The position numbers are program-made. From the NCBI GenBank assembly GCA_039815185.1, contig JBCBZT010000025.1, forward strand, positions 32,001 through 96,000: a stretch of 64,000 bases of DNA. Reading direction: 5' to 3'. This document shows positions 15,001-27,000 of this stretch, piece after piece. The DNA comes from Cyanobacteria bacterium P01_A01_bin.123. Its GTDB lineage: Bacteria > Cyanobacteriota > Cyanobacteriia > Phormidesmidales > Phormidesmidaceae. Each line of letters starts with the position of its first letter. Positions within the stretch are counted from its first letter, which is position 1.

Positions 15001-18000
15001 CCACTAGGACAGTTTCAATGTAGGGCTTGATGTGTTGATAGTAGGCAGACCCCAGTACGGTTTTAATGGATGTGCCATAGATGTCCTTTGGGGTTTGCCC
15101 GAGCCAATGTTCATAGGCTTCGTTATTAAATCGATAGCGCTGATGACGATCGACATAGGCAATCAGCACTGGCAAATTGTTCGTGATCAGGCGTAATTGC
15201 TCCTCACTTTGACGCAGGGCCGCTTCTACTTGCTTACGTTCTTGAATCTCTTGTTGCAAGGTGAGGTTCGTTTGAGTCAACTCAGCTGTCCGTAGCTTGA
15301 CTCGCTCTTCGAGATATTCCAGCATTTGCCCTTGCGAAAGCGCGATGCTGATTTGATCGGCGAGTTGCTGCATCAGATCTAATTCAAACTCGCTCCATTG
15401 CCGAGGACTGCGACATTGGTGGGCGATCAGCAATCCCCAGAGATGCTTACGGATGGGGGCTTTGCCGATAGACATTTCTGGCTTGAGGGGATGTACGATG
15501 GGGACAATCAACTTAGATTGAATGCCCCATTGCTCAATAAACTCCACCAAGCAATCGGCTAGTCCTGAATCGGGGGCATGGACATCGGCGATCGCTTGCA
15601 CTCGTCCTTGGGCATAGAGGGTCTGGTATTCTTCGGGAAAAACTTCTTCGGGGAAGGAAATCCCTAAGATTGCTGGATAAGGAGGCACGACGGCTTCACT
15701 GATGGGTTGACCAGTGCCATCGGGCAAAACTTGATAAATCAACACCCGATCGGCTTTGAGGAGACGCTGCACCTCGTTAACCGTGGTTTGCAAGATCTCT
15801 TTAAGTTGTAAAGATTGGCGAATTTTGAGTGTGATTTCTGCAAAGAGTTGGGCTTTTTGATGCTGACGATGCATTTGGGCTTCAACACCCTGCTCGTGCA
15901 ATACCCGCAATAAACGGTCTTGGTCAATCAAGCCAACCAGATGGGCATGGTCATCCACGATGGGGAGGTGGCTAATCTGGTGATGATCAAAGAGCTCTAG
16001 CAGGGGAGCAACTGCCTTCAGCGCCAACGGTGACACAGTAATCACGGGACGGGTCACAACCTCAGCCAAGCGCATGTGAGACCATTTGGGGGTTTGGGCC
16101 ATCGCTTGAATGAGATTGCGTCGTGTGGCAATGCCAATCACCTTACGACGATGCAACGCTAAAAAGCAGTTTTTCTCTGGATGAGATGCCATCCGAGCTA
16201 AAACCTTTGGCAACCCAGTTTGGCTGGAGGCAGTTAGTGGATTGGGATCCACAATCGCGCTCCAGAAGGAAAGTTCGCACGCCCCTTGATTCAATGACAT
16301 TCGTGATGGACTCCTGATTGGAATCGCTATCCCCTTAATTTATGAGGCCCTAGACAAAATCTTTGAGGAATTGTTTTTAATCTTTAAGTTTTAGGCCGCT
16401 AAAGGTAAAGAAATATAAATAAATATTTTACTTTCTTAAGCCATGAGGTTAGGTGCTTAAGAGAAATGGCTGCAAGTCTTTCGGTGGTCATTGCGCTGAT
16501 CTCTATGAGTCTGTCGAGTTTGCTTGACTAGGTGCAGAACATTGAGCCAATTTTCGGAATTGAGATTGTGGACGAGTATCTATGCGTAGAAAAATACTCC
16601 ACTCCATCAGTCCAATCTGGCGGCCTAGTCTGGCAGTCCAGTCAATCTAGCTTTGAGGGGACATTTGCGATGAAGATTCAAGGACTTGAAGACATCACCA
16701 ATCATGAACTCTCCATGGAGATTCAGAATGGCGGCAAGTTCGTTATCTTTCAGTACTGCATTTCTGTGGTGCTTTTGACGTTTAAGCGATCTTCCGACAT
16801 TTATTTCATCCGCGCTGATGAAAGCCCTGGTAAACAGGCGCTACCGTTTACCTTGATCTCTATATTTCTAGGCTGGTGGGGTATCCCTTGGGGGCCGATT
16901 TACACGATTCAATCGCTGCATACCAACTTCACTGGCGGCAAAGATGTCACTCAACCTGTGTTGTCTGCCCTGGCTAATCCCAATCCTGGGGGGCAAAGCT
17001 AAACAGTTTTATATTACTTAATTACAGGATCTGATTTTTTCTAGCAGACAGCTTACACTCTTCTCGATATTGTTAGTCTTGATCGAGGAGAGTGCTATGT
17101 TGGGGTTCTTGCTAGCCGTTTGTCTGGCCTTACTACACCTGTTTGTTGGAAAGTTGAGCGGCTTTAAGTATGTTTCCCATCGCCGCTGGATCTCTTTAGC
17201 AGGTGGCGTTTCCATTGCTTACATTTTTCTTGATGTTTTTCCAGAATTGGCCCACGCCCAAGAAGAGATAGAGCACTCAGAAATCTCGATCTTGGCCTAT
17301 CTAGAACAGCATGTGTATTTATTGGCGCTGCTGGGATTAGTGCTGTTTTATGGCTTAGATAAATTAGCGCTGCGATCGCGAACTCACAATCAAAAAATGA
17401 GCCAAGTAGATGCCACTGGTGTGGGCGTTTTCTGGGTTCATATTGCGGCCTTTGCCATCTATAACGCCATTTTGGGCTATCTGTTCCGAGAATCAGCAGA
17501 TCATGGACTTGTCGCTTGCCTGCTGTTATTTATCACGCTAGGGCTACATTTCTTAGTCAATGATCTAGGCATGAGAGAACACCATAAGCACAGCTACGAC
17601 CGATTGGGGCGGTGGATTCTCGCGGCTGCCATTATTGCGGGATGGGCTGTTGCGCAGGCGGTCATTTTCAACCCTGCTGCGATCGCCGTGATTTGGGCCA
17701 TCGTTGCAGGCGGCATTATTCTAAATGTTTTGAAAGAAGAATTGCCCGAACAACGTGAAAGTGATTTTATTACTTTCCTGACCGGGGCACTAGGGTATGG
17801 TGCGCTGCTGTTAATTGTTTAAGAAAAGGGGCCGTCCTGTTTATCTGCGAATGATTAAAAATTAACTTTCCCTGACCGAATTTAAACGCTTTCCCTGACC
17901 AACTTTACTTTCTGTTGTCGGGTGAACTCCACTTTAAAAGAAAACCTTAGGAGCTGTACTAAAACTGCAATGACCTGATAGATTCTCGGTTAATTAGGGA

Positions 18001-24000: not shown

Positions 24001-27000
24001 TGGTGAAATTTATCCCCCTTTTGGTGATTGGGGCGATTCTATTTGCATTAATCTTTCCCCGCGTCCACGACCAGTTCAATTTGGGCAAAATCCAGGGCGT
24101 TAAAGAATATGAGGGTTTTCTAGCGACCAACCCGGTTCCCCACATCATCGTGCCTCGACCTGGCAATACCGCAGGCGAAGCCGCCTTTTCTCGCTACATT
24201 CTCTCAGCGACCAATAAGGCTGGCCCGAGCCCCAGAATTCTGGAGCAAGCGGGTAACTGGGTCACCCTCAGCGGCATTTTAGTCTCGCGCAATAACCTGT
24301 CGGTAGTAGCTGTACGCTCTGCCGAACCGCTCGATCCGCCTGCAGGGGTGACCGTGCGCCCTGACGAGGGCGTCTCGCTCGGCGAATTTGCTTTGGATGG
24401 CGAAATCGTGGATGGCAAATGCTATCCCGGTATTATGAAACCGGGGCGAACTAAAACCCACCGAGCCTGTGCTATTCGCTGCATTAGCGGCGGCGTACCC
24501 GCTGTATTTCGCGTCAGCAACGGTGGTGATGTGATGTATTTCTTGCTGGCTGATTTAGCAGGAGAAGCCGTCAATGATCGGGTTTTGGATTTAGTCGCCG
24601 ATGATGTGCGCATCACTGGAGAAGTCATTCAATATGACGACATGTATGTGATTCAGTCTGACCCAGCCAGCTATGAGCGGTTGGGCTAGTTATTTAAACA
24701 GGGTTGACAGGCGTTATGGGGCTAGAACTGAAAAGTGTTGTCCCATGGGGGCGCTGTTTTGATGAATATCGTCGCATGTTCGAGCTCAGTGATGCTGACT
24801 TGGCCCGCACCCTGCTGGACTGTGGTGGTGGCCCTGCCAGCTTTAACACCGAGATGACTCAGCGGGGATACACCATCACCTCTTGCGACCCGATTTATCA
24901 GTTCTCCGCTGTCGAAATTGCCCAACGGATTGACGCCACCTATGCCACCATCATCAGTGGCGTTCTAGAAAATCTGGATCACTACGTTTGGCGTGAGATT
25001 CCCAATCCAGAGGTACTGGGCAAAGTTCGGATGGCTGCCATGACCCAGTTTTTAGCCGACTTTCCAACCGGGCTGGCGGCAGGTCGCTACCAGGTGGCAG
25101 CTTTGCCCAACCTGCCCTTTGCCGATCACCAGTTTGACTTGGCCTTGTGTAGCCATTTGCTTTTTACCTATTCTGACCAGTTGTCGCTGGCATTTCATTT
25201 AGAGGCGATAGAAAGCCTGTGTCGTGTTGCCTCAGAAGTGCGAATTTTCCCGTTGTTGCGTTTGGATGGGGAAGCCTCACCTTGGTTACCCCCCATTCTT
25301 GACCGTCTACAAACCCAGAACTTAGAATACGAAGTCAGAATCACGGCCTACGAATTTCAAATGGGTGGCAATCAGCTATTAAAAATTTTTTCTGGCAATC
25401 GCGGCAAAGCATGAAAGCGAATCCTACAGAACCTATACCGGCAGAAGCTATTCAACGACTCCACTCTGGCGCACCGTGGGAATCTCAAGTGGGGTATTGT
25501 CGAGCCGTGCGGGTGGGTAACTTTATTACCGTTTCCGGTACTGCCCCCATTGACGAACAGGGTCAAACCTATGCCCCTGGCGATGCCTATGCCCAGGCCC
25601 GCCGCTGCCTAGAACTGATTCAGCAGATCTTAGAAAAAATGGATTCGGGCTGCGATCGCGTGATTCGCACTCGTATGTTTGTCACCGACATTAGCCGCTG
25701 GGCCGAATATGGCAAAGCCCACGGTGAGTTTTTTGCTGCCCATCCCCCCGCCACGTCAATGGTGGAAGTGAAGGCGTTAATTGATCCTGAAATGCTGATC
25801 GAGATTGAGGCGGAGGCCTTTGTTACCCTGCCTGATTAATGCTATCGCTTAGGAAAACGCCACATCCCGAATTGGACAGGGGTTAAGCCTATGAACCTGA
25901 ATGGATAGGCTAGACATTGCCAGGCTCACCCGATAGGCTAGTCGAGTATGCCAAGGCTGAGAGCGATGATTAATGCTGGCGATCTGGTAAAAGCCATTCT
26001 CTGCCGAGGCCCTGAATGCCCCCAGTGGAGAGTTGAGGCTGTAGAAGGTAATGAGGTGCTATTGCGCCATCACTCTGGTTCAAGGATTGATGTCTTACAG
26101 TACGGCTGGACTAATTGTGAAGAATACACTGTGATTCGGCGGGCTTCTGATTTCTAAAGCCCAACTGTCTAATCGTGCGATCGCGCCCAAACAAAATCAC
26201 CCATCAAACGCGGCCTTAAAGAACGCAATAATTTCTACCCAGGCTGCATCTGTCGCCACTGGATCGTAGCGGTAGCCATCATCTCGCATGAAGGTGTGAT
26301 TGGCTTCATACAGCAGGCTTTTATGCTGTGTCCCTGCATCCTCTAAAGCCTTGAGAATTTGGACTCTGCCCTCTAATGGCACGTGGGGATCTAGCGTCCC
26401 AAAGACAGTTAACACTGGCCCGGTAAGTTCGCTTACCCGCTCAATCGTATCGGCGACGCCCCGCCCTAACTTGCCGCTATGAATGCCAGTGGGATAACAA
26501 CACGCTGACGCTTTTACCTCTGACTGCAAGGCTGCTCGAAAAGCTAAATGTCCACCAATACAGAACCCCATGGTGCCGATTTTGCCAGCTGCAACGCTGT
26601 TTTCAGCCGCTAACCAATCCAGCACTGCGCGGGCATCGGCATCATAGTCAGCAATCGCGGTGCGTCGGGCTGCGTCGTTGCCTCGCAACCGCCCTAGATC
26701 GTTGGGTTCAATGATGGTGCCGATGGGTTCGAGCCGATGGAAGATTTCGGGAGCTGCCACCACATAACCGTAACCAGCCAGCCGGTCTGCTAATAGCGTG
26801 ATGGGTTTGCCTAATTGATAAATGTCGGAATAAAACAAGATGCCAGGATACTGGCCCTCAGGTTGTGGGGATGCCACATAGACTCGCATGAGGCTGTCAT
26901 CTACGGTCAACCCAATGTTTTGCTGCTTGATCTGCATAGGGGTAGTTTCTGGTAGGTTGAGGACTTCATGCTATGAATCGGACAATTAGGGTTGCTGTCC

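Follow-up and report, generated by a model that had tools for sequence, protein, structure and literature searches.

Within the window analysed here, a 64,000-nucleotide stretch of contig JBCBZT010000025.1 from the marine cyanobacterium Cyanobacteria bacterium P01_A01_bin.123, seven co-directional genes (g49 to g55) lie on the + strand between positions 17097 and 24689 (Table 1). Three of them encode proteins with intact Rieske ligands, the small Rieske [2Fe-2S] domain being fused to the FMN/3Fe-4S domain of glutamate synthase (GltS) in g50, to a pyruvate-oxidase-like ThDP enzyme in g51 and to a six-helix ferric-reductase domain in g54. The genome-wide survey's note had proposed such a co-directional three-Rieske set with CxH...CxxH ligands in each protein. 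The ORFs and domains are as it claimed, and the ligands (C43/H45/C62/H65 in g50, C48/H50/C67/H70 in g51, C284/H286/C303/H306 in g54) are invariant across phyla in our alignments. Literature searches found no published account of the three Rieske fusions or of the system.

Table 1. Features of the gene cluster and its 3' neighbours (positions in the window).
Feature	Position	Strand	Basis
g49, ZIP-like permease (lead)	17097-17822 (ORF opens 17070)	+	Atlas feature/structure matches
g50, Rieske + Glu_synthase	18045-19658	+	537 aa; Pfam
g50-g51 spacer, potential hairpin	19655-19930	+	TRF + RNA fold
g51, Rieske + ThDP enzyme	19946-21901	+	651 aa; Pfam, NCBIfam, PDB
g52, two-helix membrane protein	22028-22303	+	Family in 15/80 loci
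g53, membrane-anchored protein	22315-22815	+	166 aa; position of 139-aa family
g54, Ferric_reduct + Rieske	22827-23909	+	360 aa; Pfam
g55, tandem OB-fold protein (modelled)	23931-24689	+	252 aa; alignment + AF2 model
Methyltransferase-like gene	24704-25414	+	Pfam Methyltransf_11
RidA-family gene	25411-25839	+	Pfam Ribonuc_L-PSP

All counts out of 80 given below refer to the best 80 kept of 591 confirmed Rieske-ThDP loci, which were obtained from 595 candidate stretches in a genome-contig scan and reproduce the survey's total. The Rieske domain and three TPP domains are kept in 120 of the 120 best g51 relatives (72-97% identity), as reported, and the strong cross-phylum constraint is confirmed by mean column identities of 63% for g51, 72% for g50 and 62% for g54. 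The best 80 loci come from Cyanobacteriota, Bacteroidota, Balneolota, Chlorobiota, Acidobacteriota, Planctomycetota, Myxococcota, Deinococcota, Gemmatimonadota, Actinomycetota, Krumholzibacteriota and one Pseudomonadota; the Nitrospirales and Thiodiazotropha named in the note are absent from these 80. Its description of the enzyme as laterally spread is only partly borne out by the g51 tree: Acidobacteriota and Planctomycetota, and no other phyla, interleave, whereas cyanobacteria and the FCB phyla each form one clade (support 100 each), and the phylum labels need 12 changes against a minimum of 11.

In g51, an N-terminal Rieske domain (residues 7-81, E 1.5e-17) precedes TPP_enzyme_N, M and C domains, each at about 1e-32 to 1e-34. 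The pyruvate oxidase family PRK08611 gives the best NCBIfam score (422.9 bits against 317 for the next family, so that the other 57 ThDP families all trail by over 100 bits), which is below its cut-off of 742. The match to E. coli PoxB (3eya, 1.1e-63) was reproduced. The similarity to solved structures does not single out pyruvate oxidases, with 219 bits for PoxB, 211 for L. plantarum POX and 210 for 2-hydroxyacyl-CoA lyase. The survey's label of PoxB-like is partly supported: it is right for the pyruvate-oxidase lineage of g51 but not for membership of the family. The cofactor-activating Glu is common to both enzymes (PoxB E50, g51 E165 in the alignment), and the GDG...NN motif is kept in g51 (G551-D552-G553 ... 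N578-N579). The alignment stops at residue 527 of the 572 in PoxB, five residues short of the g51 end, so that the lipid-binding tail has no counterpart in g51; instead of a membrane-binding tail, g51 carries the N-terminal Rieske domain, which is of the ferredoxin/NirD type. In addition, PoxB F465, the Phe between ThDP and FAD, aligns with a nearly invariant Lys (K584), and the flavin route of g51 may therefore differ from that of PoxB or be absent.

The g50 protein combines a Rieske domain (residues 5-74, E 1.2e-11) with a Glu_synthase domain (194-504, E 2.5e-92, 310 bits). Its best PDB matches are GltS large chains, namely 7mfm (1.4e-39, reproducing the earlier match) and 1ea0 (2.6e-36). 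The CX5CX4CP cluster motif of GltS is kept as an invariant C450-x5-C456-x4-C461-P in 19 sequences, and residues aligned with Q934, K937 and R957 of 1ea0 are likewise kept; K287 and R307 of g50 align with GltS residues that bind 2-oxoglutarate. In contrast, E940 and Q943 are replaced by T290 and H293, and g50 has neither the amidotransferase (glutaminase) domain nor the C-terminal domain of GltS. The lack of a glutaminase domain together with T290/H293 suggests that the substrate of g50 may be other than 2-oxoglutarate and ammonia.

Between g50 and g51 lies a spacer in which a G-rich arm and a C-rich tandem-repeat arm (33-bp unit, 2.4 copies, 19820-19898) are able to pair as a long hairpin (RNA fold -112.3 kcal/mol, z -3.67). 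In L001, the closest relative, just 60 bp separate the genes at this position, and the present genome holds one weak second copy elsewhere; the hairpin spacer is specific to this genome. An 87-aa ORF at 19669-19932 was rejected as a gene, being a Pro-rich reading of the tandem repeats.

Across the sample, the Rieske-ThDP enzyme has a nearly universal and interchangeable FMN partner: 56 of the 80 genomes encode a GltS-like protein, 18 a RosB-like flavodoxin-fold protein and six neither. In 45 loci the GltS-like gene is no more than 10 kb from the ThDP gene, and of the 23 genomes without a partner nearby, 11 have it elsewhere in the genome. No GltS-like gene was detected in any of the 18 genomes with a RosB-like protein, nor do both genes occur near the ThDP gene in any of 76 loci. 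In some loci the RosB-like gene takes the slot of the GltS-like gene, as in the same-slot swap between sisters L053 and L055, and on the g51 tree the partner type switches at least six times. A flavodoxin-fold relative of RosB is an odd functional equivalent for a GltS-like reductase. Its best solved relative is 5mji (E 9.5e-38), which we take to be RosB. According to two papers, RosB acts on FMN as its substrate, needs thiamine as a coenzyme and takes the amino group from glutamate, with release of 2-oxoglutarate (PMC11039241, PMC12541554). The module likewise pairs a thiamine enzyme with an FMN enzyme resembling glutamate synthase, and the ThDP enzyme and its FMN partner could act together on a flavin or related small molecule. 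We consider such cofactor chemistry most improbable: the resemblance is a mere coincidence of cofactors, FMN being a cofactor in GltS domains, and electron transfer better accounts for three Rieske domains and a haem protein.

The four downstream genes, g52 to g55, are separated by gaps of 11, 11 and 21 bp and form a membrane cassette. No Pfam or NCBIfam family matches g52; its homologues, always found just 5' of a g53-like gene, share invariant G23, D39, P55, G56, W61 and P62. The g53 protein, which occupies the position that a 139-aa family holds in 18 loci, is anchored in the membrane at its N-terminus; its outer domain is poorly conserved (mean column identity 34%), with no conserved Cys/His cluster in the alignment of this outer part. 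In g54, the ferric-reductase domain (Ferric_reduct, residues 54-190, E 4.2e-12) is followed by a C-terminal cytoplasmic Rieske domain (245-315, E 4.1e-16). H86 and H98 of helix 3 and H180 and H193 of helix 5 are invariant in 21 sequences and correspond to H101/H115 and H209/H222 of NOX2 (PMC3591440).

The survey's note obtained no fold hint for g55. Our AF2 model (pLDDT 86.8) supersedes that result and indicates a membrane-anchored tandem OB-fold protein, resembling tandem-OB SSBs (Foldseek E 2.9e-4) and single OB domains including the NlpE C-terminal domain and YgiW (VIA Z 8.4 to 6.2). After a cytoplasmic N-terminal FYxGY motif come one membrane helix and two barrels that lie outside the membrane; an invariant Cys3/His/Met motif (C164, M169, H177, C180, C184 in 21 aligned sequences) sits in the second of these barrels. 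g55 is beside g54 in 24 of 25 loci; in 13 further places it is a separate gene in nine and fused to g54 in two (ORFs of 599 and 606 aa), with no g55 ORF called in the other two (L089, on a 2.3-kb contig, and L093). Long forms make up five of the 150 best g55 representatives, four with a Rieske domain (Ferric_reduct also scored in two of these) and the fifth with Ferric_reduct only. A complex model of the pair passed its controls, scoring 0.69 against 0.01 for the best of three. Among solved complexes 116 of 157 attain that mark, as do 2 of 215 mismatched pairs; these counts hold only roughly, since our own alignments were used. At least 73% of contacts agree between runs, with partner pLDDT of at least 81. 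The predicted contacts join g55 residues 174-183, the H177/C180 helix, to the outer loops of g54, and residues 7-16 to its Rieske loop (302-307), which would place the Cys3/His/Met motif on the outer face of g54.

This site could point to reductive metal handling, with the cassette as a ferric or cupric reductase whose g55 site would bind Fe(III) or Cu(II) and reduce it outside the inner membrane, powered by 2-oxo-acid oxidation. In cyanobacteria the reduced ion would then be imported by g49 (about 241 aa from ATG 17097; ORF opening at TTG 17070). For g49, which has no Pfam or NCBIfam match, a lead toward a divergent ZIP-like metal permease comes from the Atlas, in which clusters labelled 'ZIP Zinc transporter family protein' give a feature score of 0.97 and a model labelled 'Zinc/iron permease' gives a TM of 0.88; the Atlas record begins at residue 10. 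Copper or iron is typically liganded by Cys, His and Met, the four His of the ferric-reductase domain are invariant, a ZIP-like permease lies upstream in four cyanobacterial loci including the present window, and a YHS-domain gene follows the cassette in nine loci. We nonetheless regard metal handling as distinctly unlikely: the YHS match (27.9 bits) is under the Pfam cut-off of 30.3, the system is itself iron-costly, and the ZIP-like gene tracks the ThDP gene rather than the cassette. In L001, L006 and L007, homologues of g49 immediately precede GltS-like or TPP genes, and neither L006 nor L007 has a cassette nearby. g49 is a cyanobacterial add-on directly upstream of g50 and g51 (module A). 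At the 3' end, the methyltransferase-like gene follows g55 after 14 bp and the RidA-family gene after a further -4 bp. Both are probably co-transcribed with g55 here, but they are not part of the conserved system: none of the 80 loci has a homologue of the former, and one has a homologue of the latter. The gaps before g50, g51 and g52 (222, 287 and 126 bp) leave room for separate promoters.

The survey's neighbour counts were nearly identical to ours (GltS-like gene in 45 of 80 loci, FRD-Rieske gene in 25, 24 of them with g55), ORF clustering gave the same gene order, and the Rieske-fusion genes do recur as neighbours. Its single three-Rieske module, however, resolves into two separable ones, since the FRD-Rieske cassette (module B, g52 to g55) occurs in only 38 of the 80 genomes with the Rieske-ThDP enzyme, nearby in 25 and elsewhere in 13. 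Module A centres on g51, and the pair g54-g55 is the core of module B. The absence of module B from the other 42 means that it is not an obligatory acceptor. The g51 tree calls for at least 21 switches between presence and absence of the cassette, which does not depend on partner type (present in 28 of 54 GltS-type, 9 of 17 RosB-type), and g55 belongs to a large family (1759 representatives at E<=1e-10). These observations would fit functionally independent modules, with g52 to g55 a conduit of its own with its own cytoplasmic donor, sharing only an island or regulator in some lineages. This seems rather improbable to us, because each possible pair (ThDP and GltS-like, ThDP and cassette, GltS-like and cassette) is found as neighbours, the cassette includes no further conserved donor gene, and the Rieske domains of g51 and g54 are mutually the closest of the three (37% identity over 92 residues). 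Moreover, neither the Rieske-ThDP enzyme nor the cassette was found in 150 other sampled cyanobacterial genomes, yet the present genome has both.

True GltS runs in the reductive direction, and the potentials of its FMN and 3Fe-4S cluster are unfavourable for oxidising glutamate. Against this background, g50 and g51 are unlikely to be consecutive dehydrogenases, in which g50 would oxidise an amino or hydroxy acid such as glutamate, g51 would oxidatively decarboxylate the resulting 2-oxo acid (for example 2-oxoglutarate to succinate), and both Rieske domains would feed a common acceptor, g54-g55 where present or another carrier. Each enzyme does have its own Rieske domain, as parallel donors would; K287 and R307 are in place; and in G154, G155 and G159 the cassette is near the GltS-like gene, away from the ThDP gene. 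The use of glutamate and release of 2-oxoglutarate described for RosB also fit. However, malic enzyme genes flanking the ThDP gene in Roseivirga-type loci point to pyruvate rather than 2-oxoglutarate, and the 42 genomes without a cassette lack it as the common acceptor.

We tentatively favour, at somewhat short of an even chance, two linked electron-transfer modules driven by a 2-oxo acid. The domains, ligands, conservation, gene linkage, alternating partners and g54-g55 fusion are observed directly, whereas we infer the substrate, the FAD content, the direction of flow and every protein-to-protein transfer. g51 would be a ThDP-dependent 2-oxo-acid dehydrogenase that oxidatively decarboxylates its substrate, with pyruvate as first candidate, the two electrons leaving singly through its Rieske centre. 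The preferred acceptor would be the FMN protein, here g50, whose Rieske domain, in place of the ferredoxin or GltD of true glutamate synthases, would feed the 3Fe-4S cluster and FMN of the synthase domain for reduction of a 2-oxo or imino acid. Rieske centres of the ferredoxin/NirD type lie at about -150 mV, above the 3Fe-4S and FMN potentials of GltS, and one step would therefore be uphill unless the potentials are tuned. Module B would be a membrane complex: electrons from g51 or another donor would enter at the cytoplasmic Rieske domain of g54 and travel via the inner haem (H86/H180) and then the outer haem (H98/H193) before reaching the Cys3/His/Met site that g55 presents on the outer face, where a periplasmic acceptor or metal ion would be reduced. 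The three-Rieske gene set is real, strongly conserved and unstudied, and its probable role is to carry electrons derived from a 2-oxo acid both to a partner reductase and across the membrane.

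Three of the genes in the g49 to g55 cluster encode proteins with a Rieske domain of their own, namely the GltS-like protein g50, the ThDP enzyme g51 and the ferric-reductase protein g54 (FRD-Rieske), and the other four, g49, g52, g53 and g55, have no match to a curated family in Pfam or NCBIfam. Gaps of 222, 287 and 126 bp precede g50, g51 and g52, and gaps of 11, 11 and 21 bp separate the genes of the g52-g55 cassette. In the closest related locus (L001, g51 86% identical), the whole set from the ZIP-like gene to g55 is present with its order kept, and the front gaps are 8 and 60 bp. 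The leading gene, g49, resembles Atlas clusters named ZIP or zinc/iron permease (feature score 0.97, TM 0.88). It is without any Pfam match at E 0.01, the ZIP family PF02535 included, and has nothing significant by sequence in the PDB. With a ZIP-like gene in front and a ferric-reductase domain in g54, the cluster could be read as serving reductive metal handling, which we consider very unlikely.

Features of the g49 to g55 region and of family members elsewhere (window positions unless prefixed)
Feature	Position	Strand	Basis
CBS-GAF-PAS histidine kinase gene, divergent, upstream of the cluster	14075-16300	-	
Seven closely set ORFs (g49 to g55)	17097-24689	+	ORF calls
g49 start, ATG	17097	+	Atlas record
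g50, 537 aa: Rieske and glutamate-synthase FMN domain	18045-19658	+	Pfam/NCBIfam
g50-g51 spacer with long hairpin	19655-19930		predicted RNA fold
87-aa Pro-rich ORF, rejected as a gene	19669-19932		reading of tandem repeats
g51, 651 aa: Rieske and three ThDP-enzyme domains	19946-21901	+	Pfam/NCBIfam
g54, 360 aa: Ferric_reduct and Rieske	22827-23909	+	Pfam/NCBIfam
Methyltransferase-like gene and RidA-family (imine deaminase) gene, directly behind g55	24704-25839	+	
Cluster 2 protein in the window's genome, other contig (also L081/L082)	G000:C19:11211-12023		
Cluster 2 protein in L001	L001:12079-13005		
1180-aa protein with Omp85-like C-terminus (cluster 18)	L037:3025-6567		

The methyltransferase-like gene begins 14 bp past g55 and is overlapped by 4 bp by the RidA-family gene; homologues of the former occur in none and of the latter in one of the 80 related loci. 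A RidA gene beside the locus of a GltS-like enzyme that handles imines could be a coincidence or not. The spacer between g50 and g51 is predicted to fold as a long, very stable hairpin (-112 kcal/mol, z -3.67), in which a GGGAG-rich arm pairs with a C-rich tandem repeat of 33-bp units. This hairpin is absent from the nearest relative, and the genome holds one second copy, a weak one. Nothing usable came from the promoter scan (4 promoter-like sites vs 9.7 expected, 14 terminator-like sites vs 11.7 expected), and the Rfam search gave just one sub-threshold snoRNA-like match. The pattern GTA-N8-TAC, which we take to be the NtcA-type consensus, occurs 5 times in the window vs 4.65 expected, with no copy near the cluster. 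The stretch is contained in 10 sequencing runs, all of DNA, from marine or coral metagenomes, and one of these may be its source.

To place the cluster among its relatives we relied on a locus scan with one genome per species. Of its 595 candidate stretches, 591 were confirmed, and 80 loci were obtained together with their 10-kb flanks. A simple longest-ORF rule called 1399 ORFs in these loci, which were then clustered by BLASTP; because the rule overlooked the ThDP gene in 4 loci, counts of flanking genes are out of 76 or 80. Both the 591 loci and the retention of Rieske and TPP domains in all 120 best database relatives of g51 (72-97% identity), as reported in the genome-wide survey's note, were reproduced. 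Near the ThDP gene we find a GltS-like protein with Rieske domain in 45 of the 80 loci, a 251-aa soluble protein with DDSHTN/WPHHFD motifs (cluster 2) in 42, a Na+/H+ exchanger in 28, DUF2721 in 26, FRD-Rieske and g55-like proteins in 25 each, g53-like in 18, a Crp/Fnr-type regulator in 17, g52-like in 15 and a 252-aa FMN_red-type protein in 12. The order g52-g53-g54-g55 recurs as a block, and the clustering of these genes is more than chance. Cultured carriers include Acaryochloris marina MBIC11017, Flagellimonas flava and Nonlabens xylanidelens.

The cluster 2 protein is encoded among unrelated genes in the window's own genome. Its DDSH and WPHHFD motifs are invariant and its model is confident (pLDDT 94.5). 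Foldseek found no structural relative at E<=0.001, the best VIA Z was 6.5, DUF5996 matched below threshold only, and a PDB search by sequence gave nothing significant. In Flavobacteriaceae, the surroundings of the g50-g51 pair repeatedly include the protein with an Omp85-like C-terminus (cluster 18), a small OMP barrel, a K+-channel-like protein, a Na+/H+ exchanger and a PycTM-domain protein, and a Crp/Fnr-type regulator gene precedes this set.

The FMN protein that accompanies the ThDP enzyme comes in two types. Of the 76 loci in which the ThDP gene was called, 44 hold the GltS-like gene and 12 the gene for the FMN_red-type protein, a flavodoxin-fold protein (cluster 11; L002-L004, L007, L031, L032, L044, L047-L049, L053, L057); none holds both. 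For the 23 genomes without a nearby partner, whole-genome search (E<=1e-280) identified a GltS-like orthologue elsewhere in 11, and the FMN_red-type protein was found elsewhere in 6 of the remaining 12. This brings the totals for the 80 genomes to 56 GltS-like, 18 FMN_red-type and 6 with neither. No GltS-like gene is present in the 18 FMN_red-type genomes, and an FMN_red-type match (E<=1e-40) is present in 5 of the 44 GltS-type genomes searched (of 56), one of them strong at 554 bits. On a FastTree phylogeny of 77 g51 sequences the partner type switches at least six times, and the sister pair L053/L055 differs by a swap of GltS-like for FMN_red-type in the same slot. Because an FMN partner is present in 74 of 80 genomes and has repeatedly been replaced in place, we hold the link from g51 to its FMN partner to be the core of the system. 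That g50 and g51 are instead two dehydrogenases working in parallel seems to us rather unlikely.

By sequence, the sole solved relative of the FMN_red-type protein is 5mji (9.5e-38), which we take to be RosB. Two articles describe RosB as an enzyme that uses FMN, thiamine and glutamate (PMC12541554, PMC11039241). Flavin chemistry of the RosB kind is another reading of the system, and we judge it extremely improbable. Mean column identity of the RosB-like protein between cyanobacteria and Flavobacteriaceae is 91%, far above expectation for proteins of different phyla.

The FRD-Rieske protein occurs in 38 of 80 genomes: in 25 its gene is close to the ThDP gene, and 13 of the other 55 carry it elsewhere. 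On the g51 tree it switches between present and absent at least 21 times, independently of partner type. In three genomes (G154, G155 and G159) its gene is a neighbour of the GltS-like gene, adjacent to it or no more than about 12 kb away, and the ThDP gene is far off. The system is two separable modules, not one: the g50-g51 pair and the g52-g55 cassette. The single three-Rieske module proposed in the survey's note holds for the fusions and their recurrent neighbourhood and gives way as a unit, with FRD-Rieske in just 38 of 80 genomes. Fully independent modules would agree with these many changes of presence; the clustering of the genes bears on the same question, and we regard independence as improbable. 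Two separable modules that would work together are our preferred reading.

The PDB matches of g51 are near-equal for PoxB (219 bits), L. plantarum pyruvate oxidase (211) and 2-hydroxyacyl-CoA lyase (210), with PoxB 3eya as the best chain (1.1e-63). Its top NCBIfam family is PRK08611 'pyruvate oxidase' (422.9 bits, more than 100 above other families and below the cut-off of 742); PRK09124 (PoxB) scores 293.5 bits, below its cut-off of 792. Like PoxB and the YdaP/CidC-type PRK08611 proteins, g51 has the three-domain ThDP fold (Pfam N, M and C), the activating Glu (E165, PoxB E50) and the GDG...NN motif (G551-D552-G553 ... N578-N579); its TPP_enzyme_M middle domain scores 112 bits, and ADP-binding relatives carry the same domain too. 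Unlike PoxB, it has an N-terminal Rieske domain and lacks a counterpart of the lipid-binding tail, residues 528-572, since the alignment stops at PoxB 527/572 and g51 646/651. At the position of PoxB F465, presumably the aromatic residue that lies between ThDP and FAD, g51 has K584, a Lys that hardly varies among 19 sequences. On these alignments we place g51 within the pyruvate-oxidase lineage and outside the PoxB and POX families, because the motifs are kept but the tail is absent, F465 is replaced by Lys and the score is under the cut-off. The earlier label 'PoxB-like' is thus apt for the lineage and not for family membership. By analogy with PoxB, g51 likely catalyzes the oxidative decarboxylation of a 2-oxo acid, with a protein-bound iron-sulfur centre presumably as acceptor where the PoxB family uses quinone or O2. 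In Roseivirga-type loci (L011, L015, L022-L026), malic-enzyme genes (cluster 15) border the ThDP gene and the cassette, a hint at pyruvate as the substrate.

The catalytic part of g50 matches PF01645 with 310 bits. Like the GltS alpha subunit and Fd-GltS, it has the FMN synthase domain, the CX5CX4CP 3Fe-4S motif (C450, C456 and C461 invariant) and equivalents of Q934, K937 and R957 of 1ea0. E940 and Q943 are replaced by Thr and His; we take all five residues to bind 2-oxoglutarate in GltS. A literature search on the GltS residue names found no paper. Unlike GltS, the 537-aa g50 lacks the amidotransferase, central and C-terminal domains, and hence the full-length GltB/GlsF architecture: it matches only positions 865-1155 of the 1490 in the glutamate synthase profile (157 bits vs a cut-off of 1047). 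The electron donor of Fd-GltS is a [2Fe-2S] protein, a likeness to the fused Rieske domain that takes the place of GltS's free ferredoxin or GltD. On our preferred reading, the pair would work like PFOR, ferredoxin and Fd-GltS, passing electrons from 2-oxo-acid oxidation over one-electron carriers to a GltS-type reduction; the ThDP enzyme is of an unrelated family, and the carriers would be fused Rieske domains, not free ferredoxin.

The CxH ... CxxH ligand boxes are invariant in g50, g51 and g54. None of the three has a second Cys in either box, the residue that makes the disulfide in bc1-type Rieske proteins, and this pattern fits a low-potential ferredoxin-type Rieske centre. The membrane domain of g54 matches PF01794 (46.6 bits, cut-off 28), and its invariant His pairs, H86/H98 in helix 3 and H180/H193 in helix 5, match the four NOX2 haem ligands listed in a domain survey (PMC3591440), where Rieske also appears among the domains added to bacterial FRDs. 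The match to the MsrQ equivalog NF003831 is below cut-off (33 bits vs 130), and the cassette contains no molybdoenzyme gene for an MsrP partner. The six-helix FRD and the His pairs are shared with NOX/FRE and MsrQ; the C-terminal position of the cytoplasmic electron-entry domain recalls NOX, and a dedicated outer-face partner recalls MsrP for MsrQ. The entry domain is a Rieske domain instead of the FAD/NADPH domain of NOX/FRE, the partner g55 is an anchored tandem OB-fold protein with a Cys3/His/Met motif whereas MsrP is a molybdoenzyme, and the cassette adds two small membrane proteins, g52 and g53.

The g55 protein carries a conserved N-terminal FYxGY motif, one membrane helix and the invariant residues C164, M169, H177, C180 and C184, and has nothing significant by sequence in the PDB. 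Where its model had earlier been said to give no fold hint, the AF2 model (pLDDT 86.8) has two OB barrels after the helix. Foldseek retrieved tandem-OB SSB proteins (E 2.9e-4) and VIA single OB domains (Z 8.4 to 6.2, middling values that indicate the fold, not the function). Besides co-occurrence and near-adjacency, g54 and g55 are tied by fusion in two acidobacterial genomes (ORFs of 599 and 606 aa; residues 1-346 match g54 and 350-598 match g55). Of the 150 best g55-family representatives, 5 are long forms, four with Rieske and one with Ferric_reduct only. A complex model scored 0.69 against 0.01 for the best of three controls, a mark that 116 of 157 solved complexes attain, as do 2 of 215 mismatched pairs (rough counts, because our own alignments were used). 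The runs agree in at least 73% of contacts with partner pLDDT of at least 81, and the model supports binding as a prediction. In it, the g55 helix would pack on g54 helices 1 and 2, the H177/C180 helix would rest on the outer loops of g54, and the N-terminal motif would contact the Rieske loop bearing C303 and H306. With Rieske, helix and OB domains following in that order, the fusion agrees with a Rieske domain in the cytoplasm and a g55 domain on the outer face. In the 481-aa protein P0252 a ferric-reductase domain is followed directly by a g55-type domain and no Rieske is scored, so some lineages may do without the Rieske entry module.

On the g51 tree, cyanobacteria group in one clade and FCB phyla in a second (support 100 for each), and other phyla are mixed; the 12 phylum labels need 12 changes vs a minimum of 11. 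We searched 150 other cyanobacterial genomes sampled evenly across the phylum and found neither g51 (E<=1e-100) nor g54 (E<=1e-60) in any. Both are therefore rare and patchy in Cyanobacteriota; with the window's genome as the sole positive, this sample informs on rarity, not on co-occurrence. Strong constraint combined with few transfers is consistent with both the high identity across phyla and the phylum-level clades. Of the earlier description as laterally spread and strongly constrained, the constraint is borne out, whereas frequent recent transfer is not shown by the tree and identities.

The structural description of the system is well supported; the direction of flow, the substrates and each transfer between proteins would follow from family precedent and gene linkage. 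Taken together, the modules could form an O2-compatible circuit without ferredoxin or NAD(P)H, in which a pyruvate-oxidase-derived enzyme would pass single electrons from Rieske to Rieske into two sinks: a stripped-down GltS-type reductase, and a new class of membrane complex exporting electrons via two haems to a tandem OB-fold protein with a periplasmic Cys3/His/Met centre not described before. Reductive metal uptake in marine bacteria still lacks its reductase, and this complex could be it. We regard this whole picture as distinctly unlikely.

The catalytic cores each belong to well-known families, and the wiring between them is undescribed. The survey's note had called the literature silent on the fusion, and our further search likewise found no paper on Rieske fused to a ThDP enzyme or a GltS-type domain; the Rieske addition to bacterial FRDs is known just as an entry in a domain survey. 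The constraint is unusual, with 60-70% identity between phyla for g51 and g50, and the g55 family is unnamed, without a solved relative by sequence, and comprises at least 1759 representative clusters. If worked out, the system would show a new route by which aerobic marine bacteria, and some cyanobacteria, pass the electrons of 2-oxo-acid oxidation to an acceptor; it would also give the many orphan proteins of the 'glutamate synthase-related' and RosB-like kinds a function, and add a new transmembrane electron conduit.
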